Shown here: in pieces, positions 8,332 through 28,312 of the stretch
Layout: the number at the start of each line of letters is the position of its first letter
Numbering within the stretch: position 1 is the stretch's first letter
Assembly (NCBI GenBank): GCA_045612805.1
Contig: JAZKZR010000010.1
Span: 67,136-131,135, forward strand
Origin: Candidatus Enterousia sp.
GTDB lineage: Bacteria; Pseudomonadota; Alphaproteobacteria; Rs-D84
Length of the DNA stretch: 64,000 nt
Direction of reading: 5' to 3'
Position numbers and translations under genes: made by a program
Notes under the pieces: generated by a model
What the model was told of the DNA's origin: nothing
The model's database searches: none
Seen by the model: the letters and a program-made list of their open reading frames with translations, nothing else

Positions 8332-10842
8332 TTATGCGGCACGATATGCACCACGAAAAGAGGCGAATTGTGTCAAAGCATCTTTACGCATCGGTTTTTG
8401 TTTGTTTTCGGCACTGCCAAAACGCCAACTATAAAGTGGCCCAGTGTGTGAATCACGTCCGGTTTCCAAGAAATCCCAATAAGCCATAAGTTCGTTATAC
8501 ACATCGACGTGTTTTTTGTCCCACTCCCTCAATTCTTTATCGCGACGATCGATACTTGCTTGTGAATTTTTGATTTCCTCTGTGGCCTTGCGAAAATCAT
8601 TGATGTGTTGTTGCTTTTCAGCATTTTCCTGACTGATCAGTTCGTAATCTAAAACAGCGTTCTGATATCCAGGATCGACATTTTGAATGTGATCGATAAT
8701 TGCTTCTATATCAGCCACAGCAACCGTATCAATATCTACAATGCCACGACCAATAAGTCCCAAATCGATAACATCTCTAAAATTTTCCAATTGCTCTATA
8801 AGACCTTTTTTGGAATTTAACAAAGCGGTTAATTCTGCGACCTTCACGTCTTTATCTGGTCCGGCAGCCATAATAGCTGCTCGCAAAACGGGTTCCTGTG
8901 CCTCAATAGGTTCTAATTTTTTCTTGATATCATGGACTTGTTGCAATTGATTCAAAATTTGTTCATACGGTTCAAGTGCATACTGGGCTTTTAATTCATC
9001 TTGACGTCCTTTGGTATCCAAGTCTTTTTGTTTCAAATCTACATCAGCAACCCCACCACCAGGAATCCCCAAACCAACAAGTGCCGCGCCTTTCTTCATA
9101 ACATTTGCATCGCGGTTTAATGCGTCTGCAGATATACCGGCTCTATCATCTGTGACCTTCGCCACTAATGCACTCTTATCGGTAGTATTTTTTGCGTTCC
9201 ACGCAGCATAAGAACTCCTCATACCATTGTTACTAAATTTTTGGTTAAATTTACTGCCCGATTTACGTATGCCGTTAGTCAGGAAAGTTGCACCGTATCC
9301 TATGCCAATAAATGCGGCACGAACACTTTTGTCCAATGCATTGGTAACAAATTGAACCCCGGCATTTTTATTCCAAGATAATTTGTCGTTGGAAAATATA
9401 CTAAACAAATCTTTATCACTGTGCACAGCATCCATAATCTTACTGGTGGTATTGCCATACTTTATGATAGAAAGAACCTCCATCGCTATTTTTACTTGTT
9501 TAATAACATCTTCTTTTGTTTTTCCATTTTTCGGATCTTGCGCTTCTTTTGCGGCCTTCATGATAAGTTCAGAAATAAGATATTTCATTTGACGTCCGTT
9601 TTTCAGTGCACCAGCAAAAGTTTTTGACATGTTTGGATCAGATTGAAATTCTTTCAGTGTCGATTCAAGCCAATTGAACGCCGCCGTTGCATCATTTTTA
9701 CCCTTAAGATTCCCCTTGATAGCGGACGCAGATTCAACAATTTTTCCAAGTCCGTCAGACGGTTTTATATTCGATTTGTCAAGAGCCTTACAGATATCTT
9801 TGGTGGCTGGGTTAAGATATATTCTGTCGCCACGAAATTTCGTATATTTTTTGAACAGGTCTTCATATCCATCGCCAATATCTTTTTTTATCTGTTGCAA
9901 TAATGTCAGCTGGTCGGTACGTTTCGGTGTTATGTAATCTTTGGATTCGGGGTTAGCATAATCGACTTTTTCTTTTGCAACCGCGATGGCCGATGATATT
10001 TGATTGTTTTGTCCTTCGTGCTGCTTAAATGCATCTAAAACCTTTTGATTTCTATATAACAGCAACATGAAATCCGGATAATGAACCTTGAAATTTGCTA
10101 ATTTAGCAGGGTCAACTTCCGGGGTAATCCAACCAGCATAATCATTACTGATAAAACCAACATTGTTAAGACGAAACTCGTCTGCAAGGTTTTCTGCGTC
10201 CTTATCTATACCAGGGATATTTTTGCTATCATCATAAACGAATTCTGTATATTTCTGAGCAATGTTTCGAATTTCTTTTTGAAATTCTGCTTTATTATAT
10301 TCTTTTCTTGCAACCTTGGTTCTTAGTTCGTGTATGTTTACATAAGGCAACCCAAGGTAACGGAACAAATCAGGATTTTTCCTTAATAAATCTTCCAACT
10401 TTGCAACCAAATAACCAATAGCTGCCTCTGTTTCTGGTGTTGCTTTCTTTGTTTCACCCCAAGATTTATCAAATCTATCTTTGTTGTCATCTATAAAATT
10501 AACTACATCATCTTCGCCAAGATCAGCGTAAGATTTACGCTGTGCAACCAACCCAGACATAGCATTTTGCGTATTAAGAAACAATTTTTCCCAATCTTCA
10601 TCGCTTAATTCTGTCGGATTCAACGTTATAAGTTCAAAAAAAACATCCCTGTCTAACGTGAGTTCACCAGTAACAGGATCACGTTTTAACAATTTTGCCC
10701 AATCAGCCATATTTTTGGTGAGATCTTCTTTTTTTACCAAAGATTCAAATTGAACCCAGCGCTCAATATCGTCAGACTTCATCTCATTCAAACGAACAAG
10801 TTTAAAATAAGTTTCTAAAAACTTTTTCATACTCATTGCCAT
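8332..10842 (-). CDS. Large lineage-specific hypothetical protein (about 837 aa, Lys/Asp-rich, predicted coiled-coil); candidate secreted effector
   Basis: Long uninterrupted ORF. The preferred start MAMSMKKFLE has a canonical RBS (aaggag, 6 nt, atg). No enzymatic motif was recognised. Confidence 0.5.
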   Translation of the reverse strand: MAMSMKKFLETYFKLVRLNEMKSDDIERWVQFESLVKKEDLTKNMADWAKLLKRDPVTGELTLDRDVFFELITLNPTELSDEDWEKLFLNTQNAMSGLVAQRKSYADLGEDDVVNFIDDNKDRFDKSWGETKKATPETEAAIGYLVAKLEDLLRKNPDLFRYLGLPYVNIHELRTKVARKEYNKAEFQKEIRNIAQKYTEFVYDDSKNIPGIDKDAENLADEFRLNNVGFISNDYAGWITPEVDPAKLANFKVHYPDFMLLLYRNQKVLDAFKQHEGQNNQISSAIAVAKEKVDYANPESKDYITPKRTDQLTLLQQIKKDIGDGYEDLFKKYTKFRGDRIYLNPATKDICKALDKSNIKPSDGLGKIVESASAIKGNLKGKNDATAAFNWLESTLKEFQSDPNMSKTFAGALKNGRQMKYLISELIMKAAKEAQDPKNGKTKEDVIKQVKIAMEVLSIIKYGNTTSKIMDAVHSDKDLFSIFSNDKLSWNKNAGVQFVTNALDKSVRAAFIGIGYGATFLTNGIRKSGSKFNQKFSNNGMRSSYAAWNAKNTTDKSALVAKVTDDRAGISADALNRDANVMKKGAALVGLGIPGGGVADVDLKQKDLDTKGRQDELKAQYALEPYEQILNQLQQVHDIKKKLEPIEAQEPVLRAAIMAAGPDKDVKVAELTALLNSKKGLIEQLENFRDVIDLGLIGRGIVDIDTVAVADIEAIIDHIQNVDPGYQNAVLDYELISQENAEKQQHINDFRKATEEIKNSQASIDRRDKELREWDKKHVDVYNELMAYWDFLETGRDSHTGPLYSWRFGSAENKQKPMRKDALTQFASFRGAYRAA

Positions 10843-10904
10843 CGCCGACTCCTTTGGTTCTGTCTTGCCCTGGACTTTGTTATTATAGTGCAAATTTGAC
10901 AAAA

Positions 10905-15065: not shown

Positions 15066-15100
15066 AAAAATCAAACGCCCATTCGGGCGTTTTATTTTTG
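15066..15100 (+). terminator. Rho-independent terminator after tRNA-Ser
   Basis: Hairpin aacgcccattcgggcgtt followed by ttatttttg. Confidence 0.7.
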
Positions 15101-15227: not shown

Positions 15228-16133
15228 TCACTTTTTCGCAAAAAAATCATAGAAATTAAACCACTGGGTTGGGGCGGCGATGGCGGCGCTTTCCAAAAAT
15301 TCGGCAAAGCCGTTCGCCATATTGTGGACATTTTTATCATCTAATTTTTTAATAACCAATTTATACTTTTCGGCACCAATGTTTAATAAGGCCACCGCAA
15401 ATACGGGGTGCGACATGGCACGCGCAAACCTGAACACACCAATCGGCAATTCGCAATCGCGCCCCAGTATTTGCGCACTTATTGTCTTGCCCGGCGTTGC
15501 GGCGGATACCCGATCGCCCGCCATCATAACCAATTCGCCGTTAGCCAGGGAATCAAACATTTCGCCGGCCGTTCCAACATTCATATCTTCCACCGCATGA
15601 ATAATCGTGTTCGGTCGCACGGAATGCGCGGATATAAAACGATAAAAAACGCCTGTTTGCCCAATTTGTTGAAATGCGTGAATTTTTATATCTTGGCCAC
15701 CAGGGAACGCGGACAATGCACCGATATTACCGACATGACCGCAAATTAAAAAAGCACCCATTTTTTGTTTAATCAGATTTTGAAATTCGCGCCAATCGGC
15801 ATCTTCTTGGACGATAAATTTTATGCGATTTTTTTTGTCGCACATCGCCACCATTTTATCGACCAAGGAATCCGCAAAACACCGAATATGCCGCGCGGGG
15901 GAAAATATTGTCGGTTCCGTATTTCGTGCAATTTGATATTCATTCAAAATTCGCCGATATTCGCGCGAAAACCGCCTGGTGGATTTTGCGCCCATACCGA
16001 TTACGGTTGCAATAATGCGGACCCAAAATTTCATAAACCGGATGCCAAAAATTCGGTACACCCACAACAACAGCCCCAATCGCCACATGCCCGCACCACG
16101 TTCCTGTTGCTGATACCATTTCCCTGTGTTCAA
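15228..16133 (-). CDS. Lipid A biosynthesis lauroyl/myristoyl acyltransferase-like protein (LpxL/HtrB family), APE-cluster associated
   Basis: 301 aa with an N-terminal TM segment and an LpxL-like acyltransferase fold pattern. It sits at the edge of the APE-like cluster. Confidence 0.55.
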   Translation of the reverse strand: MNTGKWYQQQERGAGMWRLGLLLWVYRIFGIRFMKFWVRIIATVIGMGAKSTRRFSREYRRILNEYQIARNTEPTIFSPARHIRCFADSLVDKMVAMCDKKNRIKFIVQEDADWREFQNLIKQKMGAFLICGHVGNIGALSAFPGGQDIKIHAFQQIGQTGVFYRFISAHSVRPNTIIHAVEDMNVGTAGEMFDSLANGELVMMAGDRVSAATPGKTISAQILGRDCELPIGVFRFARAMSHPVFAVALLNIGAEKYKLVIKKLDDKNVHNMANGFAEFLESAAIAAPTQWFNFYDFFAKK

Positions 16134-16165
16134 AGTGACTTGCCTTTGGTTGTTTTTATTTTATA

Positions 16166-16669
16166 ATGCGTTTTATGCAGGTATTTATAGCAAACATTGA
16201 TTCAATAAGCAAGAACACCGATGATTTTATGGCACTGTTGTCGGCCGATGACCGTGCGCGCGCGAAAAAATTCCAAAAACAAACACGCAAATTGCAATTT
16301 GTATTGGGGCATTTAATGGTGGCAAACATCGGCAAAAAATATGCATCTATTGCGCACAGGGATAATGTAGTTGTTGTTGCAACCGCTTCAAATGCGCGCC
16401 TTGGTGTTGATATAGAAAATGCATCTGTTAAACGTGACTTTGTTGCAGCGTCGGAAATTATTGGGATAAAGCCGTCAAAAACATTATTCAATTTTTATAA
16501 AAACTTCACAGAATCCGAGGCGATATATAAACTGGGGACCACGCCGGCGTGCACCCATTTTATAACATATGGCGATTATTTAATCTGTGTTGTGGCAAAT
16601 AAAAAATTTGCAATGCCGCGCGTGCATAATTTTGATGCGCTATCAATTTTGACGGCAAAACAGGAATAA
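16166..16669 (+). CDS. 4'-phosphopantetheinyl transferase (Sfp/EntD type)
   Basis: 167 aa with ...RARAKKFQKQTRKLQFVLGHLM... and the GVDIE motif. Size and motifs are typical of PPTases. It is adjacent to a cluster with two ACPs. Confidence 0.6.
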   Translation: MRFMQVFIANIDSISKNTDDFMALLSADDRARAKKFQKQTRKLQFVLGHLMVANIGKKYASIAHRDNVVVVATASNARLGVDIENASVKRDFVAASEIIGIKPSKTLFNFYKNFTESEAIYKLGTTPACTHFITYGDYLICVVANKKFAMPRVHNFDALSILTAKQE

Positions 16670-18790
16670 AGATATCAAATACCCAAATGTCAATCCCAAT
16701 CCCAGTGTAATACCCATTGATTGAATTAAAAAGAAACTTGCAAACGCCAATATTCCAAACCCAACCAAACTGGTCAGGAAAGAAAACAAAACTGGTTTTA
16801 TTTCGTGGCTGTCCATCGCGTTAATATGAAAAATTGAATAATCCAAGCTTAGACCAATAACTATGAATAAACTTAATAAATGAAAGAATGTTATCGGTTG
16901 CCCAAACCATGTTAATACTGCGGCGGTTAGTCCAATGGCTAATACGGATGGTGCCAAATAAATCAAAGCTTTTTTCCTGTATAAAAATAGTAATAATAAC
17001 AACAATGCAACACCACACACGGCCAATAATTGATACGATTCATGCGAATACCGTTCCATTAAATCGTTCATTTGTTGTGCGGGCGAAATGGTTATCGCGT
17101 TTGGGGACGTTGTTGCAAAATCGGCATTAACATGTGCAACAAGATACATATATTTTCCATCATCAAACATAAATTTGCCTAATAGATTTTCCAATGTTTT
17201 ATTATCACGAATATCAGAAATTTGAATAGCCGGCGTTTCAACAAATTTTGGTGCCTTCCGAATCCCCAGCTCTTTTTGAATTTTTCGTGATTCCGATTTA
17301 TATAACGCACGAATTAGGTTTTGATTTTCAATTTGCCTTTCGATTGATGGAATAATGGTTGCGATATCAAAAAAATATCCTGATTCATCTTTGATTATTT
17401 CAGAAGTGCGTAAAGCATCATTTAGTGTTTCACCACGAATAAGCAAAAATTTAGACGTATTTACCCCGTTCAGGTCTTGCATTAACGATTCTGCGGCCAA
17501 TAGTTCCGAATTTGGTCGATATAATTGCGACATATTGTTTTTCGTTTTCATAAAAGGTATTGTTGCGACTATCGCCAAAATTATTGCACCGATTACAAAC
17601 GGACGATATTTTTTAGAAACGGCATGTGGCATTTTTACGGATGTTTTTTTTGCATCTATTTTTGTTGGCATAAATATCCGCCAACCTAAATAAATCGTGG
17701 CAAGCCCGGTAATGGTAAACACGGAAATCTGTTGCAACAAAGATACCCCGGAAAAAGCCAGTGGCAAAAAGCACACAACCGTCGTTAAAAAAGAATGCAA
17801 AATGTTTTTATGGATATTGTTGGCGTCTTTGTGAATCATCGCACTGATGAAATGGAACGAATAATCTATGCCCAATCCAATCAATGTCACACCAAACACA
17901 AATGTCAAAATATGCGGTTCGGCAAAACATAAAAATAAAGCCAACGCCCCAGATACAAACCCCAATCCCAAACTTAATACAACGGGCAACAGTGTCGCGG
18001 TTCTGCGAAATAATAACCAATTTAGCAATATGGCCATGGCCAACGCCAGAAATGAAAAAACACTTAATTGCAATTTGCTTGTTTGAGTCATATTCGCAGT
18101 GTGTATCGGGATTCCAGACAAGAAAACCCGCGCATCATCACCATTGTATTTTTTTATCATATTCGTCAAAGAATCAACGGTTTTTACCATGTCGTTCGTG
18201 TCGCGTGCATTAACATCCATGGAAATCAAAATATAATGATCGGGGGCAACATATTGCCATAAAAATCCGTCACGCGCGGTCCATTTGCCGTTCACCAATT
18301 TCAATTCGTTTACATAATTTGTGGACAAAAGAAAGGGGTCGTCGGTCAAACTTAAAACACTTGGCGCCATTGACCCCGAAACACTTGCAACCGCATTATC
18401 TGTAATTTTGGCAAATTCACCATTTTGAAGTATTTCGCGATAATTCGAACTTAAAAAAGAATTCCTGTGAATACGTAATTGGTTGATTGTATCAGATACG
18501 GAAAAATCGGTGGTTATAATCGATAATTTATCAAATTCATCCGCATCCAAAATGCGCGTTATTTCATTTGCGGTCTGTTTTGCGGTATTTAGATTTTCAG
18601 ATTTAATGACAACGTTAACAACATTTGAAAATTTGTTTGTTAAATTCCCGATGGGCCAATCGGCATAATTTATTTCGATCAAAGAATTAAGGTTGGTCTG
18701 AATCGACAATGGCGTGCGCCAAAGGCAAGTCGCCAAGAAAGCCACCAAACACACGATTCCAAAGATAATTTTTTTAACATTTAATTTCAT
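16643..18790 (-). CDS. MMPL/RND-superfamily membrane exporter (ApeM-like)
   Basis: 715 aa with two blocks of TM helices separated by large periplasmic domains, the typical MMPL architecture. It is adjacent to the GT-LolA-like gene. Confidence 0.7.
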   Translation of the reverse strand: MKLNVKKIIFGIVCLVAFLATCLWRTPLSIQTNLNSLIEINYADWPIGNLTNKFSNVVNVVIKSENLNTAKQTANEITRILDADEFDKLSIITTDFSVSDTINQLRIHRNSFLSSNYREILQNGEFAKITDNAVASVSGSMAPSVLSLTDDPFLLSTNYVNELKLVNGKWTARDGFLWQYVAPDHYILISMDVNARDTNDMVKTVDSLTNMIKKYNGDDARVFLSGIPIHTANMTQTSKLQLSVFSFLALAMAILLNWLLFRRTATLLPVVLSLGLGFVSGALALFLCFAEPHILTFVFGVTLIGLGIDYSFHFISAMIHKDANNIHKNILHSFLTTVVCFLPLAFSGVSLLQQISVFTITGLATIYLGWRIFMPTKIDAKKTSVKMPHAVSKKYRPFVIGAIILAIVATIPFMKTKNNMSQLYRPNSELLAAESLMQDLNGVNTSKFLLIRGETLNDALRTSEIIKDESGYFFDIATIIPSIERQIENQNLIRALYKSESRKIQKELGIRKAPKFVETPAIQISDIRDNKTLENLLGKFMFDDGKYMYLVAHVNADFATTSPNAITISPAQQMNDLMERYSHESYQLLAVCGVALLLLLLFLYRKKALIYLAPSVLAIGLTAAVLTWFGQPITFFHLLSLFIVIGLSLDYSIFHINAMDSHEIKPVLFSFLTSLVGFGILAFASFFLIQSMGITLGLGLTFGYLISLFLFCRQN

Positions 18791-20072
18791 CGGGCGAATC
18801 CGTTTTTATGCGTTTGAAATCAATCGTAATAGTCATGCCATTTTTATATGTGATAACAATTTGTTTCAAATCTTTTGTATCCCCGGTCAGTGTCAAAGAT
18901 TCCAAAAATTCGGCCACAGCGGAAATTTTGGGGGTCGCAACCAACACCCAATTCTTTTTAATTTCCGTATAATCCGCGTTAAAAGCGGTCAAAAACATGC
19001 CCATATCGCCGTCCATCATATCTTTTATCATGGATTGAACCTGGGAAAAATGGGGCAGGGCAGATAGAGCATTCGTATCACCATTTATACAATACGAATC
19101 CAGTGTGGACGTGAAGTCAAAGGCATTTGGTTTTTGCTGTTTCCATTTGAAGCCTGCGCCCTTTACAAATTTTACTGTGCCGGTTGCACGAAAAGTTTTG
19201 GTCGATTCCGGTAAAGTTTTTGTTTGCGTATATGATGCGTGCACGGTTCCCAAATTGTCGGTAAAGGTTTTTAATGTGGCGGGCATTTCGGTGATGTTTT
19301 GCGCATTGGCCGCGCCACAGATTATCATTGACACCAAAAATAAATTTTTAACCTTTTTGAACGCTTTCTTAATCAACCACCACGGCAATCCACAACATAG
19401 GTATATATGCAGCAAACTTATATAAAAATTATCCCGCCAAACATGGAAATGCGATATTCCGGTTTTGGGGTATATAACACGCGTTTCCGTGGTGACAATC
19501 CGAACCCCCGCGCGGTACAGTTTTACAAAAATTTCAATATCAATACCCATACGCAAAAAATGCAAAGATGATAATACGCGTTCGGTTTCGGCCAATGGAT
19601 ACACGCGAAATCCGCACATCGCATCGGGCATGTGCCGGTTCATTGTTTCAACCGCAACCCAAAAATTTGTAATTTTGCGCCCAATCAACCGGGACCGTGG
19701 TGCCGATGAATCATACACCGGTTGCCCCATAACAAGTGTATTTGGATTTTTTCTGGCAAGTTCTATGAATCTTGTAATATCATTTATATCATGTTGTCCA
19801 TCCGCATCAATTTGCAGTGCATTCGAAAACCCAAGTTGTAATGCCTTTCTAAACCCGGTTATCATGGCGGCACCCTTGCCGGCATTTTTTTCGTGTTTTA
19901 TATATGTATAACCATATTTTGTGCATGTGTGTTGTAATTTTTTAGATTGTTCCTTCATACTGCCGTCATCGACAACAATCACCGGAATTTTATGTTCATA
20001 AATTTGGCCGGCAACCCCAACAAATGCATCCGCATGATTAAAACAAGGTATTATTATGACGGGCTTAAACAT
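18774..20072 (-). CDS. Fusion protein: N-terminal family-2 glycosyltransferase, TM helix, C-terminal LolA-like outer-membrane-lipoprotein-carrier domain (ApeJ plus ApeL equivalents)
   Basis: Single 432-aa frame. Residues 1-230 have GT2 motifs (IIIPCFN, VVDDGS, DADGQHD, CGFRVY). A hydrophobic segment GLPWWLIKKAFKKVKNLFLVSMIICGAANA follows, then a beta-rich domain resembling LolA/LppX. No stop separates the domains. Confidence 0.6.
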   Translation of the reverse strand: MFKPVIIIPCFNHADAFVGVAGQIYEHKIPVIVVDDGSMKEQSKKLQHTCTKYGYTYIKHEKNAGKGAAMITGFRKALQLGFSNALQIDADGQHDINDITRFIELARKNPNTLVMGQPVYDSSAPRSRLIGRKITNFWVAVETMNRHMPDAMCGFRVYPLAETERVLSSLHFLRMGIDIEIFVKLYRAGVRIVTTETRVIYPKTGISHFHVWRDNFYISLLHIYLCCGLPWWLIKKAFKKVKNLFLVSMIICGAANAQNITEMPATLKTFTDNLGTVHASYTQTKTLPESTKTFRATGTVKFVKGAGFKWKQQKPNAFDFTSTLDSYCINGDTNALSALPHFSQVQSMIKDMMDGDMGMFLTAFNADYTEIKKNWVLVATPKISAVAEFLESLTLTGDTKDLKQIVITYKNGMTITIDFKRIKTDSPDEIKC

Positions 20073-20074
20073 CT

Positions 20075-21772
20075 TTATTCCTTTATAACAATTTTACCGG
20101 CCGAATATTTTACATCGCCATTTTCATAACAGAAACTAAATTCATCTTCATTTAATTTATTTAATTCAAAATGCACCATTGTATCCGGCAAAATCAAATT
20201 GGTAAATTTTAGTTTTATAATATCATAAGTTTTAACATTTTTATGAAAAAACATTTGAATGAATTTAATAACGAAATGCAGTTGCATCACACCCGGTAAA
20301 ATAGGGCAATTTTCAAAATGTCCCTTGAAATATGCGGAATCCCCCAAAAAGATAAAATCCGCGGATAAAAAATTGTCGTTTTTTACCAAGTTTTTTGCGA
20401 TTGGGTCCGCCACCGCGGAACGCAAAATTTCGGCAATTTCGGACTTTAATATCTTGCCTTGGGTATTCATCGGTATTTTATTAACAATTCTAATTTTTCG
20501 TGGCAATGCGACATTTGGAAAATATACCGACAGCCAATTTTTTATATCAGATACAAATTCATGCCGCCCATGCGCGGTTATAAAATCTTTGCCCGCATCG
20601 GTTAGGGTTAAAACGCACCCAATAACAATTCGTCCATTTTGATTCACGGTTGTCACATAACAACCATCAACGAATTTATGCGACCCCAATTTTTCTTCGT
20701 ATTCCGGCAATGATATTCGTTCTTCGGCAATTTTAACAATTCTGTCTGCACGCCCCTTTAACAAGAATTGCCTTTCATTTTGCACCTCTATCACATCCGA
20801 CATTTGAAAAGGACGTGCACAGCAAAATTCCGAATCCGCAATTATACAATTATTTTCATCTAAACCGATTTTAACATCATCAAAAGCCGTCCAAGACGGC
20901 CCGTTTTTCTGTTGCCGAAATGCAACGCCACCGGTTTCGGTACTGCCAAAAACCTCAAAAGGTGATGCGCCAAAGATTTCGAATGCTTTTTGCGATGTTT
21001 CAGGCCTTAACAAACTGCCCGAAGAAAAAATGCCAATGCAATTATTTGGAAAATCGTATTGGTTTTGATATTTTGTTATACCATCCAAGAACGAAGGTGT
21101 GGTCGCAAATAATACATTGGCAAATTTATGTTGCGATGCCTGTAATTCTTCGGGTGTAAAAATCATATTTGTGTCAACCGCGATGCCGGCGGAAAGTGGA
21201 ATTAAAAAACGCCACAGCAAACCGTACATATGATATGGTGCGATTGATGCAATCATCACGGGATTTTTGACAAAATTATCGTGTTGCATTTTATTATGCA
21301 TGGCAACTTCGGCCGCCAGATTATGAAATGTTTTACAGATTTTTTTTGGTGCGCCGGTACTGCCCGATGTGAAAAAATATATCAATCGGTCATCCATATC
21401 ACAGAAATCCCAATTGCCACCAAAATCTTGATTGATATCAACAAATGTAAAGCCGGCAAAATCAAATTTTTGGTCGGTCACAATTGTGTCGGTTAATTCA
21501 CGCAGTGTATCGATATTTTGTTCCGTTAGCATCGCGGGCAAAATCACATCTTTGCCGGCCTGCATCAACCCCATAAAGGTCACATAAAACATATAAATAT
21601 CATTTGGAATAAATAAAATCACCGTCTTGGCATCCGTGCGGGCAAATATGTTCGCCATGCGCGCAACATCGTTTGAAAATTCATGGAACGACACACCCGT
21701 CCCACCGCGATAGAAAACCGTCCGTGTCGGTGCGATATTATTGATAAAAAACTTATTTATTTCCGCGAACAT
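20075..21772 (-). CDS. Fusion protein: AMP-dependent synthetase/ligase (acyl-ACP synthetase-like adenylating enzyme) plus C-terminal FabA/FabZ-like hotdog dehydratase (ApeH plus ApeI equivalents)
   Basis: About 565 aa. The adenylation motifs FFTSGSTGAPKK, FGSTETGG and ...GKILKSE are followed by hotdog-fold motifs AYFKGHFENCPILPGVMQLHFV. Confidence 0.65.
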   Translation of the reverse strand: MFAEINKFFINNIAPTRTVFYRGGTGVSFHEFSNDVARMANIFARTDAKTVILFIPNDIYMFYVTFMGLMQAGKDVILPAMLTEQNIDTLRELTDTIVTDQKFDFAGFTFVDINQDFGGNWDFCDMDDRLIYFFTSGSTGAPKKICKTFHNLAAEVAMHNKMQHDNFVKNPVMIASIAPYHMYGLLWRFLIPLSAGIAVDTNMIFTPEELQASQHKFANVLFATTPSFLDGITKYQNQYDFPNNCIGIFSSGSLLRPETSQKAFEIFGASPFEVFGSTETGGVAFRQQKNGPSWTAFDDVKIGLDENNCIIADSEFCCARPFQMSDVIEVQNERQFLLKGRADRIVKIAEERISLPEYEEKLGSHKFVDGCYVTTVNQNGRIVIGCVLTLTDAGKDFITAHGRHEFVSDIKNWLSVYFPNVALPRKIRIVNKIPMNTQGKILKSEIAEILRSAVADPIAKNLVKNDNFLSADFIFLGDSAYFKGHFENCPILPGVMQLHFVIKFIQMFFHKNVKTYDIIKLKFTNLILPDTMVHFELNKLNEDEFSFCYENGDVKYSAGKIVIKE

Positions 21773-22310
21773 CCATATGCCTTTTGTGAATAATAAACAC
21801 AACCACGATCATCATAGCAATCAGAATATAGGAAATCAAACCGTTAAACAAAACCCAAATTTCATCAGATAAAAATACGGTTACGCAAGAAACCGCCGCC
21901 AAACAAAACATAAAAATCGCCCACGCATATGTTGCCCGATGCGCATATTGTTTGTCGGTCGCGCCCAATTTATACCCCATCTTTGTTGCAAACTTTTCAA
22001 TCAAAGGCACCCCACGTAATGATAGCGCGAACATTAAACACACCGAAATATTCATCAAAACGGGGTACAGTTTTAGAAAAACATCATCATTAAATATAAT
22101 TAAACCCAAACCAAACAATAAAACGCATATAAATATCCATATGTTTTTATTGCGTACAAACGAAATACCCGCGGCGGCCAATAAAAATAGTGCCAAAAAA
22201 CGCACCGCAACGTGCCGCTTTAACGCAAAAAACACGACAAACGGATAGATAACAGTAAACCCAACACCAAGAACCTTAATGATTTTTATTAACGATTTTT
22301 TCAATGGCAT
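21753..22310 (-). CDS. Integral membrane protein of the APE-like cluster (ApeG-like); start uncertain, overlaps ACP gene
   Basis: Four to five TM helices. The ATG chosen is at MPLKKS. The track ORF extends to 22409, overlapping the upstream ACP. Confidence 0.45.
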   Translation of the reverse strand: MPLKKSLIKIIKVLGVGFTVIYPFVVFFALKRHVAVRFLALFLLAAAGISFVRNKNIWIFICVLLFGLGLIIFNDDVFLKLYPVLMNISVCLMFALSLRGVPLIEKFATKMGYKLGATDKQYAHRATYAWAIFMFCLAAVSCVTVFLSDEIWVLFNGLISYILIAMMIVVVFIIHKRHMDVRGNK

Positions 22311-22530
22311 CAACCATGTCTTGTAAAGTGCGAATTTGTTTGAAATCATCGGGTTCAACCTTGCAGCCAATGATTTTTTGCAATCGAACCACAAGGTCCA
22401 CGGCATCAATTGAATCCAAATCTAAATCTTCAATCAATAATGATTCTGGTTTCAATTTGTCCGAATCTATATCAAATTCTTTGACCAAGATATTTTTTAT
22501 TTCTTTAAAAATTTCGTCTTTTGTGTACAT
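22276..22530 (-). CDS. Acyl carrier protein
   Basis: 84 aa with the DLDSIDAVDL phosphopantetheine-attachment motif. Confidence 0.8.
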   Translation of the reverse strand: MYTKDEIFKEIKNILVKEFDIDSDKLKPESLLIEDLDLDSIDAVDLVVRLQKIIGCKVEPDDFKQIRTLQDMVDAIEKIVNKNH

Positions 22531-22536
22531 ATCAAT

Positions 22537-22812
22537 TTACTCCAATGTAATGTTTTTTGATTCCGCAATATACGTTGCCAAACGTGCCACAGATTTGAAA
22601 TATTCCTTGTTGGCTTCTTTATCCGCCTTAAAATTTACCTGATATTTTTTCTTTAGCGCCATACCCAATTCCAACGCATCAATGGAATCAAGCCCAAGCC
22701 CAGTTCCAAAAAGTGGCGCAGACGCATCAATATCATCGGCCGTCACGTCTTCTAAATCCAACGCAGATACGATTAGTTCTTTGATTTCACGTTCCAATAA
22801 TTCCCGTTTCAT
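22537..22812 (-). CDS. Acyl carrier protein (second tandem ACP)
   Basis: 91 aa with the LGLDSIDALEL motif. Confidence 0.8.
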   Translation of the reverse strand: MKRELLEREIKELIVSALDLEDVTADDIDASAPLFGTGLGLDSIDALELGMALKKKYQVNFKADKEANKEYFKSVARLATYIAESKNITLE

Positions 22813-22872
22813 ATCACATCCTTATGCAGGCAATACTAACAATATACAAATAAAAATTCAAGGAAATTATAC

Positions 22873-23607
22873 CTAAAACAATATGTTTTTGGCTTTTTCT
22901 GTGATATCAACCGCGATGGCGCGTTTATTTGTTTTTTTTATCGTATTATAACAAATCAATGACATGGGGATAATATCATACACGGACGTCTTATTCCCGA
23001 TGCCCCACCATTTTTGTGTTTTCCCCAATATTGGTGGTGTATTGGTAATTTTTATGGGCAAAATGTTTGCCCCGGTCGCCATTTGCAGGTATGCAAACCC
23101 GCGGTGCAATCGTATTATTTTGTTCGACACCGTCCGTGTTCCTTCGGGAAAAATAACGATATTATATCCCCGTGCCAAAATATCCGAACCGTTCGCAATA
23201 AATTCGTCTGGCTTCATCGTGTTGGACAGATATGTGTTGCCGATAACCCGGCGAACAAACACATTTCTAAATAAACTTTCCTTTACAACACACACTGAAT
23301 TTGGAATTCGTGATACCAAGATAACAACATCAATCAAAGAAGGGTGGTTGGCAATCACAATTGTCCCACGCAGTTTTTTTAATTGTTTGCACGCCGGGCA
23401 ATTTACCCTGATTAAACGCAAAGCACACAATAACCATATGAACGCACGCCAAGAAAGATGAATTGTGTTTATAAAAATTTTTCGCTGTTTATCGGACCTG
23501 GACACCAATAAAATAACGGGGAATATCGCGGACCCAATCAGCAAACCGCCCAATCCAAAGATACAAAAACAAAACGCACAAAGAAGTGACCGTATAAATT
23601 TAATCAT
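22873..23607 (-). CDS. 1-acyl-sn-glycerol-3-phosphate acyltransferase-like (lysophospholipid acyltransferase family, ApeD-like)
   Basis: 244 aa with an N-terminal TM segment. The NHPSLIDV (HX4D) and FPEGTR motifs are present. Confidence 0.75.
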   Translation of the reverse strand: MIKFIRSLLCAFCFCIFGLGGLLIGSAIFPVILLVSRSDKQRKIFINTIHLSWRAFIWLLCALRLIRVNCPACKQLKKLRGTIVIANHPSLIDVVILVSRIPNSVCVVKESLFRNVFVRRVIGNTYLSNTMKPDEFIANGSDILARGYNIVIFPEGTRTVSNKIIRLHRGFAYLQMATGANILPIKITNTPPILGKTQKWWGIGNKTSVYDIIPMSLICYNTIKKTNKRAIAVDITEKAKNILF

Positions 23608-24232
23608 TTTGCATTGTCCAACTTTTTGTTGTCACGCAATTTGTTCGCCCTTGCAAAAAATCCACCATTGTTTCCAATGTTAAAAGATTTGCATCGCAAT
23701 CGCCTTTTGTGATTTTAATTCCGCGTTTGCCGTGTTTTTTTATCATAAATGCCAATCCAAATGCGTTGTGTGGCGTGTCCAACAATGGCGCGTACATATC
23801 CGGATTATGTTCACCCGCAAACACAACCATAACATCGCAGGGTTCCATTAACGCCTTTAATATCGCCATTCCAAGGGTGTTATCGCCCGCCGCAATTGAT
23901 GTATAACTGTTTGTGTTTCGGGTAAGTAATGAAAACAGCCCCGCGGCGGCATTATGCACAGAATTACTGAATCCCGCCGGTGACATTTCATGTTCTTCAA
24001 AAAATTGTTTGATTAACTGTATCGTTTGTCCCCATTCGCCGAATTTAGATGCAAACACGGTCGTATAATCTTGTGCCCCTTGGACAATTTTCCCGGCGAT
24101 TCCAACGGCGATTTTTTCAATGTTCGACATACGACGACGAACCATGGATGGAATAAAAGAAAAATCCGGCAATTTTTCATCCGCTGATTCTTGCCAAATA
24201 ATAAAATCATCAATATAGATTTTGTTGTTCAT
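23600..24232 (-). CDS. Beta-ketoacyl synthase N-terminal-like protein lacking the active-site Cys (chain-length-factor-like, ApeC-like)
   Basis: About 210 aa. Internal ATG at MNNKIYIDDFIIW. A KS-like fold with FSNSVHNAAAG in place of the catalytic Cys. Confidence 0.5.
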   Translation of the reverse strand: MNNKIYIDDFIIWQESADEKLPDFSFIPSMVRRRMSNIEKIAVGIAGKIVQGAQDYTTVFASKFGEWGQTIQLIKQFFEEHEMSPAGFSNSVHNAAAGLFSLLTRNTNSYTSIAAGDNTLGMAILKALMEPCDVMVVFAGEHNPDMYAPLLDTPHNAFGLAFMIKKHGKRGIKITKGDCDANLLTLETMVDFLQGRTNCVTTKSWTMQND

Positions 24233-24308
24233 ACTTGAAAAATACTTTTTTTTATAGCACAGTGGCATTATATGAAAAAAATCATAATTTGCAAGCGGGT
24301 TTATGTAT

Positions 24309-25445
24309 ATGTCGGTGATATTACAAGATTTGGGTTTTGTTTGTGCGCTTGGGGTGTCGCACGATGAAATTGTTGAAAACGCACGGCGCGGCGACACGTC
24401 GGGTATGTTTCGTGTGATGCCGACCGTGGCGGAAACATCGGTTCCGTTTGGTTCGGTGAATATCGAAACGCACGAAATAATGCGATGCTATGATTTATTA
24501 CTTGCGGCATTGCGACAAATTGAACCGGCAATATCGAAATTAAAATCTGATTATGCACCGGACAGAATTGGAATAGTTATCGGTGCAAGTAATACCGGCG
24601 TGCACGAGGCGCAAAAACATTTAAACATTGCATTGGGAACAGGCAAATTGCCACATGAATTTTCCTTGTCCGAACTAGAATTATATTCACCAACCGCATT
24701 TTTGGTTGAAAAAACTGGGTTCGCCGGCCCCGCATATACCGTATCAACGGCCTGTTCATCCAGTGCCAAGGTTTTTCAAGATGCCAAGGATTTAATAGAA
24801 CAGGACATCTGTGACGCGGTTTTGGTTGGTGGTGTTGATGCGCGTTGTGATTTTGCACTGAACGGGTTTAATGCACTATCGGCACTTAGTTATAAACACA
24901 CAAACCCAATGTCGCAAAATCGTGACGGAATCAACCTTGGCGAAGGCGCGGCTCTTTTCATAATGACGCGTGGGGCGGTCGGTATAAAAATGTTGGGCGT
25001 GGGCGAAAGTTCCGATGCGTATCATTTAACAAGTCCGGATCCAACCGGGGCCGGTGCCATTGCTTCTATGAATTCTGCATTATTAAATGCTGGTTTAACG
25101 CCGGAAAAAATTGATTTTATAAATATGCACGGAACGGGAACGATTGCCAACGATGCGATGGAATCTTTGGCTATAAATTCGGTTTTTGGTGATAAAACGT
25201 TGTGTGCATCAACAAAACCATTAACCGGTCACACCCTTGGGGCGGCCGGCGCGGTAAGTGTGGCACTATCGTGGCTTATGATAAAACACCAATTTGTAAT
25301 ACCGCACATTTTTGATGGTGAATATGGTGCGGATTGTGCAAAGATAAATTTGGCGACCACGCAATGCAAAAAAAACATAAACAATGTGTTGTGCAACGCC
25401 TTTGCTTTCGGGGGCAGCAACGCAAGTGTAATAATTGGACGGTAA
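24309..25445 (+). CDS. Beta-ketoacyl-ACP synthase (KS, ApeO-like)
   Basis: Active-site TACSSS. The HGTGT and GHTLGAAG motifs are present. Divergent from the CLF-like gene. Confidence 0.8.
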   Translation: MSVILQDLGFVCALGVSHDEIVENARRGDTSGMFRVMPTVAETSVPFGSVNIETHEIMRCYDLLLAALRQIEPAISKLKSDYAPDRIGIVIGASNTGVHEAQKHLNIALGTGKLPHEFSLSELELYSPTAFLVEKTGFAGPAYTVSTACSSSAKVFQDAKDLIEQDICDAVLVGGVDARCDFALNGFNALSALSYKHTNPMSQNRDGINLGEGAALFIMTRGAVGIKMLGVGESSDAYHLTSPDPTGAGAIASMNSALLNAGLTPEKIDFINMHGTGTIANDAMESLAINSVFGDKTLCASTKPLTGHTLGAAGAVSVALSWLMIKHQFVIPHIFDGEYGADCAKINLATTQCKKNINNVLCNAFAFGGSNASVIIGR

Positions 25446-25446
25446 A

Positions 25447-25917
25447 ATGGGCAAATATGATTTAACAAAACTTATACCACAACGCACGCCGATGATTTTC
25501 TTGTCGGACATTGAAAATTTTGATTATGAAAACCAAACCTTGGTTGCGCGGGTTGATGTTCGTGATCCAGATTTATTGTTTGATAAAAATCTTGGTGGCA
25601 TTCCGTCTTGGGCGTGTTTGGAATTTATGGCACAAAGTGTCGCGGCCTATGTCGGATTGGGCGATTTGCATGAAGACCCAAATGCAATGCCCGCGGTCGG
25701 GTTTGTTTTGGGGTCGCGCAAAATATCTGTATCGGCCCCCGTGTATTTGGCCGGACATTCATACTTTGTGCATGTTAAATCTTTATTTTGTGACCAAAAC
25801 ATTGCGTCATTTGATTGTCAGATTCTTGATGAAAATAACAATGTCGTTGCGGCCGGCGCACTAAACGCCTTTCGACCGGATGATATAACAAAATTTATGG
25901 AGAACAGAAATGAATAA
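25447..25917 (+). CDS. Hotdog-fold 3-hydroxyacyl-ACP dehydratase (ApeP-like)
   Basis: About 156 aa with a hotdog pattern (...GIPSWACLEFMAQSVAAYVGL...). It is translationally coupled to the upstream KS. Confidence 0.6.
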   Translation: MGKYDLTKLIPQRTPMIFLSDIENFDYENQTLVARVDVRDPDLLFDKNLGGIPSWACLEFMAQSVAAYVGLGDLHEDPNAMPAVGFVLGSRKISVSAPVYLAGHSYFVHVKSLFCDQNIASFDCQILDENNNVVAAGALNAFRPDDITKFMENRNE

Positions 25918-26635
25918 AACGGTTCTTATTACGGGTGCAAGTCGTGGCATAGGGCGCGCAATCGCGATATATCTTGCGCGGGCGGGTTATGATTTGGTGT
26001 TACATTATAATTCAAATTCTGCAGCGGCGAATGAAACACTAAACGCGGTTAAATCGTTTGGTGCGCGGGCGCGGTTATTGTGTTTTGATATCGCCAACCG
26101 TGTGCAGACAAATGATGTTATAAACGCGGATATTGCACAGTATGGCGCATATTGGGGCGTTATTTGCAACGCGGGGATAAACCAAGATGCCCCGTTCCCA
26201 GCGATTGAACCCGACGCATGGGACAGGGTGGTTCACACAAACCTGGACGGACTTTATAATGTGTTGCATGCGACGGTTATGCCGATGATTTCTGCGCGCG
26301 CCGGCGGTCGCATCGTGGCGTTGTCGTCCGTGTCGGGATTGATTGGTAACCGTGGCCAGGCAAACTATGCCGCATCCAAGGCCGGAATTATTGGCGCGTG
26401 TAAATCTTTGGCAATTGAATTGGCGCGACGTAATATAACGGTAAATTGTATTGCGCCGGGTATTATCGAAACTGATATGACCGCTGATTTGCCTGATGGT
26501 ATTGTTGATCAGGCAATACCGATGCGTCGCGCCGGTCGGCCCGACGAAGTGGCAAGTTTGGTTGCGTATTTATTATCTGACGATGCGGGTTATATCACGC
26601 GCCAGGTTATATCTGTAAATGGGGGGCTTATCTAA
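25910..26635 (+). CDS. fabG: 3-oxoacyl-ACP reductase (SDR family, FabG/ApeQ-like)
   Basis: TGASRGIGRAIA cofactor motif. Catalytic S...YAASKAG, and the IAPGIIETDM motif. Confidence 0.85.
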   Translation: MNKTVLITGASRGIGRAIAIYLARAGYDLVLHYNSNSAAANETLNAVKSFGARARLLCFDIANRVQTNDVINADIAQYGAYWGVICNAGINQDAPFPAIEPDAWDRVVHTNLDGLYNVLHATVMPMISARAGGRIVALSSVSGLIGNRGQANYAASKAGIIGACKSLAIELARRNITVNCIAPGIIETDMTADLPDGIVDQAIPMRRAGRPDEVASLVAYLLSDDAGYITRQVISVNGGLI

Positions 26636-26636
26636 A

Positions 26637-27869
26637 ATGACAAGACGCGTTGTTGTGACCGGAATGGGGTTGGTTAGTGCACTGGGGAATGACCCTGATT
26701 CCGCATTTAATCGTTTGCACACATATAAAAACACAATTCGTGAAATTGAAGGTTTGTCCGCGATACACGGGTTAAATTCACATTTGGCATCTTTGGTTCA
26801 TTTTTCTATTCCGGACCATTTTAATCGCAAGGTTTTGCGTACAATGGGACCGGTATCTGTTTTGGCGGTGTATTCGGCGGAAAACGCGTTAAATGATGCG
26901 GGTTTGTTGGGTGATTCTGTGATAACAAACGGTCGTACGGGTGTCGCATATGGTTCGTCGTTTGGTTCGGCGGGCCCCGTTGCGGATTTCTTTTCCATGG
27001 TAAAAACAAATGAAATCGGGAACATTACATCTTCGTCGTATATCAAGATTATGCCGCAAACAACGGCGGTCAATATATCGTTATACTTCAAAACCACGGG
27101 GCGTTTAATCCCAAGTGGTACCGCCTGTACTTCGGGCAGTTTGGCAATCGGTTTTGCATATGAAAATATAAAATCCGGCGCCCAAGATATAATGATTGCG
27201 GGCGGTGCCGAAGAATTTGACCCGACCCAGGTTGCCGTGTTTGATACCCTTTATGCAACCAGTACGAAAAACGATACACCCGACAAAACCCCGTCACCAT
27301 TTGATGCAAACCGTGATGGTTTGGTTATTGGTTGTGGTGCCGGAACATTGATATTGGAAGAACGCGAACATGCATTGGCGCGCGGGGCCAAGATTTATGC
27401 CGAACTTGTTGGTTTTGGTACGAACACGGACGGAACGCATATCACACAACCAAATTCGGATACAATGGCAAACTGTTTGGAATTGGCGTTGGAATCGGCA
27501 AAACTAAAACCCACGGACATCGGATATATATGCCTGCACGGAACGGGGACAACATTTGGCGATATCGCCGAATCAATTGCAACAAATCGCGTCTTTGGTG
27601 ATAAAACCCCGGCCAGCAGTTTGAAAAGTTATGTCGGACATACCCTTGGTGCATGTGGTGCGTTGGAATCAATTTGGTCGATTCAGATGATGAATAATGA
27701 TTGGTTTGCGCCGACATTGAATTTGAATACGGTGGACGAAAAATGCGGTGCATTGGATTATATAACAAAAACCGGTCGCAATTTTAGTGCCGATTTTGTA
27801 ATGAACAACAATTTTGCCTTTGGCGGAATAAACACATCACTAATCTTTAAAAAAGGAGGAAAAAAATGA
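26637..27869 (+). CDS. Beta-ketoacyl-ACP synthase II-like (KS, ApeR-like)
   Basis: MTRRVVVTGMGLVS N-terminus. Active-site GTACTSGS, and the HGTGT and GHTLGACG motifs. A track alternative start lies at 26619. Confidence 0.85.
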   Translation: MTRRVVVTGMGLVSALGNDPDSAFNRLHTYKNTIREIEGLSAIHGLNSHLASLVHFSIPDHFNRKVLRTMGPVSVLAVYSAENALNDAGLLGDSVITNGRTGVAYGSSFGSAGPVADFFSMVKTNEIGNITSSSYIKIMPQTTAVNISLYFKTTGRLIPSGTACTSGSLAIGFAYENIKSGAQDIMIAGGAEEFDPTQVAVFDTLYATSTKNDTPDKTPSPFDANRDGLVIGCGAGTLILEEREHALARGAKIYAELVGFGTNTDGTHITQPNSDTMANCLELALESAKLKPTDIGYICLHGTGTTFGDIAESIATNRVFGDKTPASSLKSYVGHTLGACGALESIWSIQMMNNDWFAPTLNLNTVDEKCGALDYITKTGRNFSADFVMNNNFAFGGINTSLIFKKGGKK

Positions 27870-28282
27870 AAACATTAATATCACTTTTGTCTGTGGGAAC
27901 TTTGGCGGCATGCAGTGCGGCGGGCCCAATTATGCGCCCGATTCATGAAGACCTACATTCTGCGCGTGCCGACGGTTTTCTAAATCCATCGATTGAACTA
28001 TCTTTTGGAAAGTCAGAAATTACAGGTAAAAATCTTGGAACATGGGTGTCCAACAAGAAAACAAACTCCGTAAACAAAGATGCGTCCACGGCATGTCAAA
28101 TCGCGTTCCTGTCCGCGGTAAAATCATTACAGGATAGGGCTGTTCGTGAAGGCGGCAACGCGGTGACAAATATTCATAGTTTCTATGACAAAGTTCCAGA
28201 ATGGAGTGAAACGACATACCGTTGTAAAGACGGCCATTTGATGAGTGGCGTGGCCCTGCGTGGAACGGTGGTGAAAAAATAA
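27866..28282 (+). CDS. Cluster-associated lipoprotein (138 aa)
   Basis: Signal peptide with the lipobox LAAC. It overlaps the KS stop (coupled). Terminal gene of the + operon. Confidence 0.55.
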   Translation: MKTLISLLSVGTLAACSAAGPIMRPIHEDLHSARADGFLNPSIELSFGKSEITGKNLGTWVSNKKTNSVNKDASTACQIAFLSAVKSLQDRAVREGGNAVTNIHSFYDKVPEWSETTYRCKDGHLMSGVALRGTVVKK

Positions 28283-28312
28283 CAAACGCCCGTTTGGGCG
28301 TTTTTTATTTTA
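28283..28312 (+). terminator. Rho-independent terminator closing the + operon of the APE-like cluster
   Basis: aacgcccgtttgggcgtt followed by ttttatttt. Confidence 0.75.

Follow-up and report, generated by a model that had tools for sequence, protein, structure and literature searches.

An aryl-polyene-type lipid gene cluster with a streamlined, divergent layout in a host-associated alphaproteobacterium

Aryl-polyene (APE) clusters are the most widespread family of biosynthetic gene clusters (BGCs) in Gram-negative bacteria, and the lipids they encode are thought to protect Gram-negatives against reactive oxygen species and to influence biofilm formation. Here we ask whether a compact run of genes in a 64,000-nucleotide stretch of Candidatus Enterousia sp. 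(contig JAZKZR010000010.1, positions 67,136 to 131,135; hereafter the window) is such a cluster and, if so, how much of the known pathway it has kept. The region, of about 13 kb, spans window positions 15228-28282 and is bounded by terminators. It had been called an APE-like type II polyketide synthase/fatty acid synthase (PKS/FAS) lipid cluster in an earlier reading of the DNA alone (the original prediction), and matches to the clusters of Escherichia coli, Xenorhabdus doucetiae and Acinetobacter baumannii bore this out: all genes but the last have a counterpart in one of these clusters, and their order is kept. Judged by its sequence, the region belongs to the APE family of type II PKS/FAS-like lipid clusters, and its bearer is a host-associated alphaproteobacterium. 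We put the probability that it is a functional APE lipid biosynthesis and export cluster with a streamlined layout at roughly 0.8.

The gene content, order, strands and boundaries initially proposed agreed with the listing of open reading frames (ORFs) and with Pfam (Table 1). On the minus strand, Pfam matched Ketoacyl-synt_2, Acyltransferase, two PP-binding domains, an IspA-like protein, AMP-binding plus ApeI-like, glycosyltransferase family 2 (GT2) plus LolA, MMPL and Lip_A_acyltrans. On the plus strand, it matched a ketosynthase (KS), an ApeP-like dehydratase (DH), a short-chain dehydrogenase-type ketoreductase (SDR/KR) and a second KS, followed by a short ORF with a lipobox. Neighbouring genes mostly overlap or abut. 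The two divergent operons with a 76-bp shared region, also part of the original prediction, were recovered with orthologue-conserved starts. These starts changed the first minus-strand gene, whose listed ORF begins too far upstream (265 aa, from a GTG); its conserved start is the ATG at 24232. The ApeP-like gene starts either at TTG 25435 or at ATG 25447.

Table 1. Features of the APE-type cluster and its boundaries (window coordinates)
Feature	Position	Strand	Basis
Bidirectional intrinsic terminator, left cluster boundary	15073-15092	.	Hairpin between tRNA-Ser and acyltransferase gene end
Stand-alone acyltransferase, 301 aa	15228-16133	-	Pfam Lip_A_acyltrans E 1.9e-5
Sfp-type 4'-phosphopantetheinyl transferase, 164 aa	16175-16669	+	Convergent with apeM; 27-nt overlap of apeM 3' end
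ApeM-like MMPL/RND exporter, 715 aa	16643-18790	-	Pfam MMPL; NCBIfam HAE3/HpnN-like
ApeJ(GT2)-ApeL(LolA) fusion, 432 aa	18774-20072	-	Pfam Glycos_transf_2 + LolA; GT2 residues 1-230, LolA-like ~258-432
ApeH-ApeI fusion, about 565 aa (565-575)	20075-21772	-	Pfam AMP-binding + ApeI-like in one ORF
ApeG-like polytopic membrane protein, about 185 aa from conserved Met	21753-22310	-	Pfam IspA; hydropathy
ApeF-like acyl carrier protein, 84 aa	22276-22530	-	NCBIfam PRK05350, 107 bits, cut-off 65; 48% identity to E. coli ApeF
ApeE-like starter acyl carrier protein, 91 aa	22537-22812	-	NCBIfam PRK09184, 97 bits, cut-off 70
ApeD-like lysophospholipid acyltransferase, 244 aa	22873-23607	-	Pfam Acyltransferase E 4e-15
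ApeC-like chain-length factor, 210 aa, first minus-operon gene	23600-24232	-	Ketoacyl-synt_2 (PF13723) E 8e-39
Divergent intergenic region	24233-24308	.	76 bp, using orthologue-conserved start codons
ApeO-like elongating ketosynthase	24309-25445	+	NCBIfam PRK09185, 420 bits, cut-off 407
ApeP-like dehydratase subunit	25435-25917	+	Pfam ApeP-like E 1e-14; PDB 6qsr_B E 4e-11
ApeQ-like ketoreductase (FabG2)	25910-26635	+	NCBIfam TIGR01831, 359 bits, cut-off 339; 57% identity to E. coli ApeQ
ApeR-like ketosynthase, initiating homodimeric type	26637-27869	+	NCBIfam PRK09116, 622 bits, cut-off 470
Small lipoprotein, 138 aa, LAAC lipobox	27866-28282	+	Translationally coupled to apeR via ATGA overlap
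Bidirectional intrinsic terminator, right cluster boundary	28284-28303	.	Hairpin scan

The assignment to the APE family was examined at the level of the condensing enzymes. Both KSs, the FabG2-type reductase and both acyl carrier proteins (ACPs) scored above the curated cut-offs of APE-type NCBIfam models. Against the Protein Data Bank (PDB), the ApeO-like KS reached 269 bits (E 5e-79) with X. doucetiae ApeO (6qsp_A) and 217 bits with A. baumannii ApeO (7f28_B), as against 157 for the best FabF. The ApeR-like KS, 57% identical to E. coli ApeR (proteins of this cluster are hereafter prefixed Ec), matched A. baumannii ApeR (7f27_A) at E 8e-139 versus E 1e-76 for FabB; in bits, it scored 466-486 with 7f27_A and 4ewg_A versus 262 for the best FabF/FabB. 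The PDB matches of the chain-length factor (CLF) were to ApeC only (A. baumannii 7f28_A, E 1e-16; X. doucetiae 6qsp_B, E 4.5e-10). An exact-sequence look-up found no identical sequence on record for the ApeO-like protein. As for the active sites, the Cys-His-His triad is intact in both KSs and the Ser-Tyr-Lys triad in the KR, while the dehydratase site is split between the His of a GHF motif in the ApeI domain and the Glu of an LEFMAQ motif that the alignment places in ApeP.

Could these instead be housekeeping type II FAS genes, or a cluster of the flexirubin/dialkylresorcinol type? The housekeeping system has the same folds and the same condensation, reduction and dehydration chemistry, and models for FabF, FabB and FabG do match with strong E-values. 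However, for the two KSs the FabF and FabB models stay below their curated cut-offs (TIGR03150, 206 and 357 bits against 494; PRK07967, 131 and 317 against 630), whereas the APE-type models exceed theirs. None of FabH, FabD, FabI and FabZ is in the cluster, and the cluster differs from housekeeping FAS in having a CLF partner and linked genes for assembling and exporting a glycolipid. Clusters for xanthomonadin, and for flexirubin with dialkylresorcinol, fall in the same broad APE superfamily: they too start from an aryl unit, build the polyene on a type II PKS-like synthase and export by LolA/MMPL proteins. Weak matches to the flexirubin LolA2 and FlxB models were indeed seen. These equivalogs nevertheless fall far below their cut-offs (LolA2, 45 against 125; FlxB, 268 against 340; DarB, 16.5 against 550), and no DarA, DarB or tyrosine ammonia-lyase (TAL) gene is present. 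The model and PDB scores thus effectively refute both variants. The original prediction had named housekeeping FabF/FabB-type KSs, or a fabH/fabD/fabZ set at this place, as evidence against itself; instead, the KS scores favour ApeO and ApeR, and no fab set was found.

The remaining chain-building proteins point in the same direction of an APE-type system. Both ACPs carry the serine motif DSID. The 91-aa ACP is 56% identical to EcApeE and 53% identical to A. baumannii ApeE, and in the alignment it has the ApeE-specific Gly-rich motif and a six-residue loop (lid) insertion, both described for ApeE, the ACP to which ApeH passes the p-hydroxybenzoate starter (PMC12624758). The ApeH-I protein combines a putative adenylating, ACP-loading domain with a FabZ-like dehydratase domain holding the catalytic His (GHF). 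Its Pfam ApeI-like match sits at the gathering cut-off (28.5 bits), and blastp aligned it with EcApeH (E 2e-42), EcApeI (E 1e-10) and the fused A. baumannii ApeH-I (E 2e-57). The core adenylation-domain motifs are intact in ApeH, and the best NCBIfam model of the domain is TIGR02372 at 89 bits, as it is for the counterparts in E. coli (87), A. baumannii (95) and Cupriavidus metallidurans CH34 (99). The domain is 26-28% identical to the studied ApeH enzymes, an identity at which the substrate is not readable from the sequence. Two pairs of normally separate genes had been described as fused. Both fusions are present, but novelty was overstated for the H-I fusion, which also occurs in A. baumannii and C. 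metallidurans. The ApeH-I fusion is in fact not unusual: all 120 of the 120 best database homologues have 560-570 aa and both domains, and tblastn against plasmid and chromid records gave single-piece matches with about 95% coverage in Acinetobacter, Cupriavidus, Caballeronia and Ralstonia, suggesting the same fusion in the last two.

The fusion of ApeJ and ApeL is a different matter. Its GT2 half is 44% identical to EcApeJ residues 5-234 with the DXD motif intact, and its best NCBIfam model is the polyprenyl-P-GalNAc synthase PpgS, at 61 bits only; its LolA half matches EcApeL at E 2e-4 and A. baumannii LolA at E 2e-9. Within the linker, a hydrophobic helix and a K-rich loop are found together with a segment that still resembles a signal peptide, NLFLVSMIICGAANA followed by Q. 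A related locus in a sister clade (L011) instead encodes J in 249 aa and L in 189 aa as unfused genes spaced by a 39-aa ORF; where the window has its internal segment, the L protein of this locus opens with a classical signal peptide, MRYIVLFLSFISCGVYA followed by AD. Compared with this locus, the spacer is gone in the window, and the signal-peptide-like segment has become internal with the Lys-rich loop before it. Full-length homologues of the J-L fusion (430-438 aa) reach only about 55% identity, below which the closest homologues are GT2 proteins of about 245 aa that stand alone; as far as these comparisons tell, the ApeJ-ApeL fusion is narrower in spread than the ApeH-I fusion. The ratio of nonsynonymous to synonymous substitution rates (dN/dS) of the fusion is about 0.1. 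We infer that the internal segment still drives export of the LolA-like domain, which may be cleaved between ANA and Q; an internal start codon in the ORF would be an alternative route.

The other lipid-anchoring enzymes have clear counterparts in studied clusters. The ApeD-like protein carries the motifs HX4D and FPEGTR and matches A. baumannii ApeD (blastp E 8e-31) and EcApeD (E 4e-25). The gene at the left edge had been taken for an LpxL-like acyltransferase, an identification that did not hold. All of it aligns with residues 246-549 of EcApeJ, a protein of 558 aa (blastp E 3e-17), and it also matches the separate 308-aa A. baumannii acyltransferase (E 4e-24). Because of the full-length match to the C-terminal part of EcApeJ, the edge gene is best seen as the detached acyltransferase half of ApeJ and not as an extra gene. 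On the export side, full-length blastp matches linked the ApeM-like exporter with A. baumannii ApeM (E 7e-35) and E. coli ApeM (E 1e-26), and the ApeG-like protein matched A. baumannii ApeG (E 1e-24) and EcApeG (E 7e-10).

The 4'-phosphopantetheinyl transferase (PPTase) was the least recognizable member of the set. Its ORF has no Pfam or NCBIfam match, the Pfam ACPS model misses it, and its database homologues are unannotated (50 of 50, from about 50 clusters). On the other hand, the best PDB match of a profile of its orthologues is Sfp, and an AlphaFold2 model built from 21 homologues (pLDDT 91.8) retrieved Sfp in Foldseek (1qr0, E 2.6e-8; 4mrt_A, TMq 0.76), followed by human AASDHPPT, and PcpS as well, with probability 1.00. 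Residues H64, D82, E84, E118 and K122 (numbering of the 167-aa ORF) align with Sfp H90, D107, E109, E151 and K155, and the same H, D, E, E and K are invariant in sets of six and 21 orthologues. The predicted model thereby confirmed the pseudo-dimeric fold, with the Mg/CoA-binding residues present. A PPTase at the cluster edge was correctly foreseen, but its strand had to be corrected to plus. In three orthologous loci, stop codons interrupt the competing antisense ORF of 111 aa; no orthologue has one in the PPTase frame. Codon-position periodicity is no help in choosing between the two frames, as their wobble positions coincide, and neither the antisense ORF nor orf139 has a Pfam or NCBIfam match. 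The PPTase frame was therefore chosen because of the stops in the orthologous antisense ORFs and the predicted fold. In E. coli, too, a PPTase gene, acpT, adjoins the APE cluster (PMC8253772); the window protein has no detectable sequence similarity to AcpT (E 0.018). A TTGCCT-16-TATAAT match (16140-16177), at the level of a pattern only, ends 8 nt before the PPTase ATG at 16175. If this promoter match is real, the PPTase mRNA would be leaderless or nearly so.

The organization of the cluster was then compared across related genomes. A back-translated pattern scan with the first plus-strand KS, taking one genome per species, yielded nine loci with 78-97% protein identity. All nine come from uncultured rumen or gut metagenome-assembled genomes (MAGs) labelled Alphaproteobacteria or "uncultured proteobacterium" (RUG774, RGIG2769, RGIG837 and others); the host-associated alphaproteobacterium of the original prediction was correct. 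The whole layout recurs in the related MAG loci L002-L007, L011 and L013, all of which have two divergent operons, a fused H-I, an antisense PPTase gene and an acyltransferase gene at the end, and lack ApeK, ApeN and ApeB. The 15 conserved ORFs are all intact in every related locus with no frameshifts, the same gene set is kept across species down to about 55% protein identity, and pairwise dN/dS values against four relatives range from 0.02 to 0.31 for every gene. Low dN/dS and a recurring layout together imply that the cluster is maintained by selection and is not decaying.

A further pattern emerged from the comparison with L002 (MAG SRR6425765_bin.2). In the minus operon and on either flank the nucleotide identity is 80-87%, but it jumps to 95-98% over apeO-apeR (window 24000-27900; L002 10000-13560), where dS is 0.05-0.15 versus 0.46-1.3 elsewhere. 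This tract looks like the result of recent homologous recombination by which the core polyketide operon passed from one rumen species to another.

As for the genes that are not present, tblastn with the E. coli and A. baumannii proteins found none of ApeA, ApeB, ApeK, ApeN, an aromatic lyase and a FAD oxidoreductase in the 64-kb window. The absence of the thioesterase (ApeK) and the methyltransferase (ApeB) had been predicted correctly. The absence of a lyase had been noted too, and it is real, but it is no oddity, because E. coli has no lyase in its cluster and uses 4-hydroxybenzoate (4-HBA) derived from UbiC (PMC8253772). What had been overlooked is the absence of ApeN (DUF3261, LolB-like), which is also missing from the related loci L011 and L013. 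ApeN is an accessory export gene and lies outside the core set that defines ape BGCs (bioRxiv 10.1101/2020.12.19.423268), and E. coli deletion mutants of apeK and of apeB are both still pigmented (PMC8253772).

Several points nevertheless weigh against a functional APE cluster. ApeK and ApeN are both found in the clusters of E. coli, A. baumannii and C. metallidurans, and ApeGLMN have been called conserved across APE BGCs (PMC8253772); their loss is therefore a real departure. No 4-HBA source (UbiC, TAL or histidine ammonia-lyase, HAL) was found in the cluster or in the examined parts of the window, and an aromatic starter would have to be activated by an ApeH domain of 26-28% identity to the studied enzymes. 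The acyltransferases of the window, L002 and L003 have HVGNIG at the HX4E motif (E138G), whereas those of L005, L006, L007, L011 and L013 and E. coli ApeJ retain the Glu. Finally, the organism is uncultured. Taken at their strongest, the E138G change and the missing ApeB, ApeK and ApeN, all three of which the reference clusters possess, might indicate a decaying or non-functional remnant. We consider this highly improbable in view of the intact ORFs, the gene set kept over wide species distances and the dN/dS values; even for the acyltransferase, dN/dS is 0.04-0.15, so that it is still under purifying selection.

If the cluster is functional, a pathway can be proposed by transferring the chemistry worked out in E. 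coli, X. doucetiae and A. baumannii (PMC8253772; bioRxiv 10.1101/2020.12.19.423268; PMC12624758) to enzymes recognized here by homology. The mini-PPTase would turn both ACPs into their holo forms. The adenylation domain of ApeH-I would activate an aromatic acid, 4-hydroxybenzoate in the studied systems, and load it directly onto the ApeE-like ACP. ApeR would start the elongation, and the ApeO:ApeC KS-CLF heterodimer would iterate with malonyl-ACP, each beta-keto group being reduced by ApeQ and dehydrated by the composite dehydratase formed by the ApeI His and the ApeP Glu. Because no enoyl reductase is present, a conjugated polyene would accumulate. The ApeF-like ACP would bear the extender, a second conjugated fatty acyl chain, or both. 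ApeD would acylate a lysophospholipid, and the GT2 domain would add a hexosamine, a sugar suggested by the PpgS match and in line with the GalNAc of X. doucetiae APE lipids. The ApeJ-C-type acyltransferase would then transfer the polyene from the ACP to the sugar, and such a direct transfer would make the ApeK thioesterase unnecessary. ApeG, the ApeM pump and the LolA-like domain, the last reaching the periplasm by way of the signal-peptide-like segment within the J-L fusion, would carry the lipid to the outer membrane, and export would proceed without a LolB-like acceptor. Without ApeB, the head group should be unmethylated, as it is in an X. doucetiae apeB deletion mutant (bioRxiv 10.1101/2020.12.19.423268). 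The likely product, then, is an aryl-polyene glycolipid with an unmethylated head group that is exported to the outer membrane.

The aryl part of this product is where the pathway is most open to another explanation, namely that the same enzymes yield a polyene lipid lacking an aryl head group, for instance only the conjugated fatty acyl (cFA)-type chain or a chain begun from a non-aromatic acid, the adenylation domain having drifted to some other substrate in a bacterium possibly unable to make 4-HBA. The lack of a lyase or UbiC gene and the low identity of ApeH would fit this. In X. doucetiae, APE lipids bear a second conjugated acyl chain that has no aryl group and for which synthesis by the same enzymes has been proposed (bioRxiv 10.1101/2020.12.19.423268), and the genomes of rumen Alphaproteobacteria are reduced (PMC9177762). 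However, the ApeE-type starter ACP retains its aryl-accommodating features, the adenylation-domain profile is, at the level of the family, indistinguishable from that of ApeH enzymes proven to load 4-HBA, and the E. coli cluster likewise encodes no source of 4-HBA. The rumen, moreover, is rich in free phenolic acids. We therefore regard a non-aryl product as unlikely and retain the aryl-polyene glycolipid as the expected one.

How does this cluster compare with the known systems? The apeA-R cluster of E. coli CFT073 and X. doucetiae is collinear with ApeC-J, L, M and O-R of the window, with 21-57% identity by blastp against the annotated E. coli cluster (L010). Like the cluster described here, it pairs a KS with a CLF, uses two DHs and tandem ACPs, and has the modules that anchor and export the lipid. 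In contrast to the two divergent operons here, E. coli has one unidirectional operon of 18 genes. It possesses ApeA, ApeB, ApeK and ApeN, all missing from the window; it keeps H and I separate; and its ApeJ is one protein, whereas in the window the GT2 half is fused to ApeL and the acyltransferase half stands at the cluster end. A. baumannii (ApeO-ApeC 7f28, ApeR 7f27; PMC8358021, PMC12624758) gives the best blastp match, or nearly the best, for ApeC, ApeG, ApeH-I, ApeM, the LolA domain and the acyltransferase, with an H-I fusion of 552 aa and a separate GT2 (246 aa) and acyltransferase (308 aa). It differs in being unidirectional and in having an aromatic amino-acid lyase, a thioesterase, a FAD oxidoreductase and a DUF3261 protein, none of which the window has. 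Its gene order is J-AT-lyase-TE-L (AT, acyltransferase; TE, thioesterase); in the window, by contrast, these intervening genes do not lie between J and L, which became fused in frame in the window's lineage within the alphaproteobacterial clade. The megaplasmid cluster of C. metallidurans CH34, whose gene content was derived by tblastn, has the fused H-I and the same core genes and order as the window. Unlike the window, it is unidirectional and keeps ApeK, ApeN and the FAD oxidoreductase. On these comparisons, the clade is set apart by its two divergent operons, by having lost ApeB, ApeK and ApeN, by a dedicated mini-PPTase and by the in-frame J-L fusion.

That APE clusters occur in this class of bacteria is in itself not new. 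The original prediction held that they are little described in Alphaproteobacteria, which was overstated: they have been reported in Acetobacteraceae (PMC8776678), and APE is among the commonest BGC calls (antiSMASH) in MAG surveys of the rumen and of the caprine gut (PMC9177762, PMC9769736). Standard BGC tools would probably label the present cluster "arylpolyene". In the open-access full-text literature, no description of this alphaproteobacterial layout was found.

The plus operon ends with a small lipoprotein gene that had been counted as a cluster member, an assignment that the comparison with relatives contradicts. In a strain otherwise 97% identical, the apeR-coupled slot holds an unrelated 143-aa lipoprotein (L001 4504-4935); in a more distant species it holds argS, and the lipoprotein is absent from L005-L008. 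The sequence of the 138-aa protein matches neither Pfam nor NCBIfam, its family profile found nothing in the PDB, and a single-sequence AlphaFold2 model was uninformative (pLDDT 33). YbjQ_1 is weakly matched by 17 of 32 members of the family, which is widespread. An equivalence with ApeA or ApeN was tried and rejected, the blastp E-values being 0.011 or worse and due to the signal peptide only. From its distribution, the lipoprotein is a strain-variable passenger and not a conserved APE component, and the slot behaves as a variable lipoprotein cassette.

The boundaries of the cluster coincide with the two best terminator-like hairpins of the region, which lie exactly at its ends. Both have the 8-bp stem AAACGCCC-N4-GGGCGTTT with T-runs on either side. 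The possibility that they mark a mobile unit was rejected, as the identical hairpin was found elsewhere in related loci; it recurs in the related genomes L001, L002, L004, L005 and L008, beyond the cluster borders too, and is therefore taken as a generic terminator of these genomes. A promoter for the minus operon is suggested by a TTGCAA-16-TATAAT match at 24294-24267, a pattern match only. The promoter scan overall was not above chance (44 found versus 43.1 expected), and promoter assignments are accordingly weak. Rfam identified three tRNAs only.

Other genes of the window give a glimpse of the organism. Rumen Alphaproteobacteria of the orders Rs-D84 and UBA3830 are described as fermentative, with genomes of about 1 Mb (PMC9177762). 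The window encodes a Fe/Mn superoxide dismutase (2573-3286), an acetate kinase (6996-8237) and an Ldh/Mdh (5953-6882), which fit these fermentative bacteria. The superoxide dismutase together with the APE cluster hints at exposure to oxygen or to host-derived oxidants. Further along, a T7-like (podovirus-type) structural module occupies 44331-56169 on the plus strand, with an endolysin-like ORF, scaffold, major capsid protein, two tail proteins, terminase large subunit and portal. The terminase large subunit is split into ORFs at 50093-50695 (phrog_38 residues 273-458) and 54064-54927 (residues 481-705), about 3.4 kb apart, with a minus-strand 217-aa ORF, a double-HTH regulator and a DnaB helicase between them. 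The module may be a disrupted prophage or a domesticated remnant. Three further ORFs, at 8332-10902 (856 aa), 37522-39024 (500 aa) and 4684-5919 (411 aa), had no Pfam match at E <= 1e-4.

A bolder interpretation would be that this is a minimal 15-gene APE system of uncultured, possibly genome-reduced gut and rumen Alphaproteobacteria, equipped with its own mini-PPTase but lacking thioesterase, methyltransferase and ApeN, one that takes up phenolic acids of the rumen as starters in place of 4-HBA synthesis, transfers the chain directly from ACP to glycolipid and sends its LolA-like carrier to the periplasm by cleavage from a cytoplasmic glycosyltransferase at an internal signal peptide. We regard the whole of this proposal as rather doubtful. 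If true, it would define a minimal gene set for the assembly and export of APE lipids and would reveal an unusual way to get two differently located proteins from one ORF. Independently of it, the export route and the minimal gene set of APE systems are still unsettled in the field, and the variant described here shows that ApeK, ApeB and the LolB-like ApeN are dispensable in nature. A compact 13-kb cluster with its own PPTase is also suited to heterologous expression. The variant is maintained by purifying selection in many uncultured Alphaproteobacteria of gut and rumen, and it has modest value as a naturally minimal APE system.

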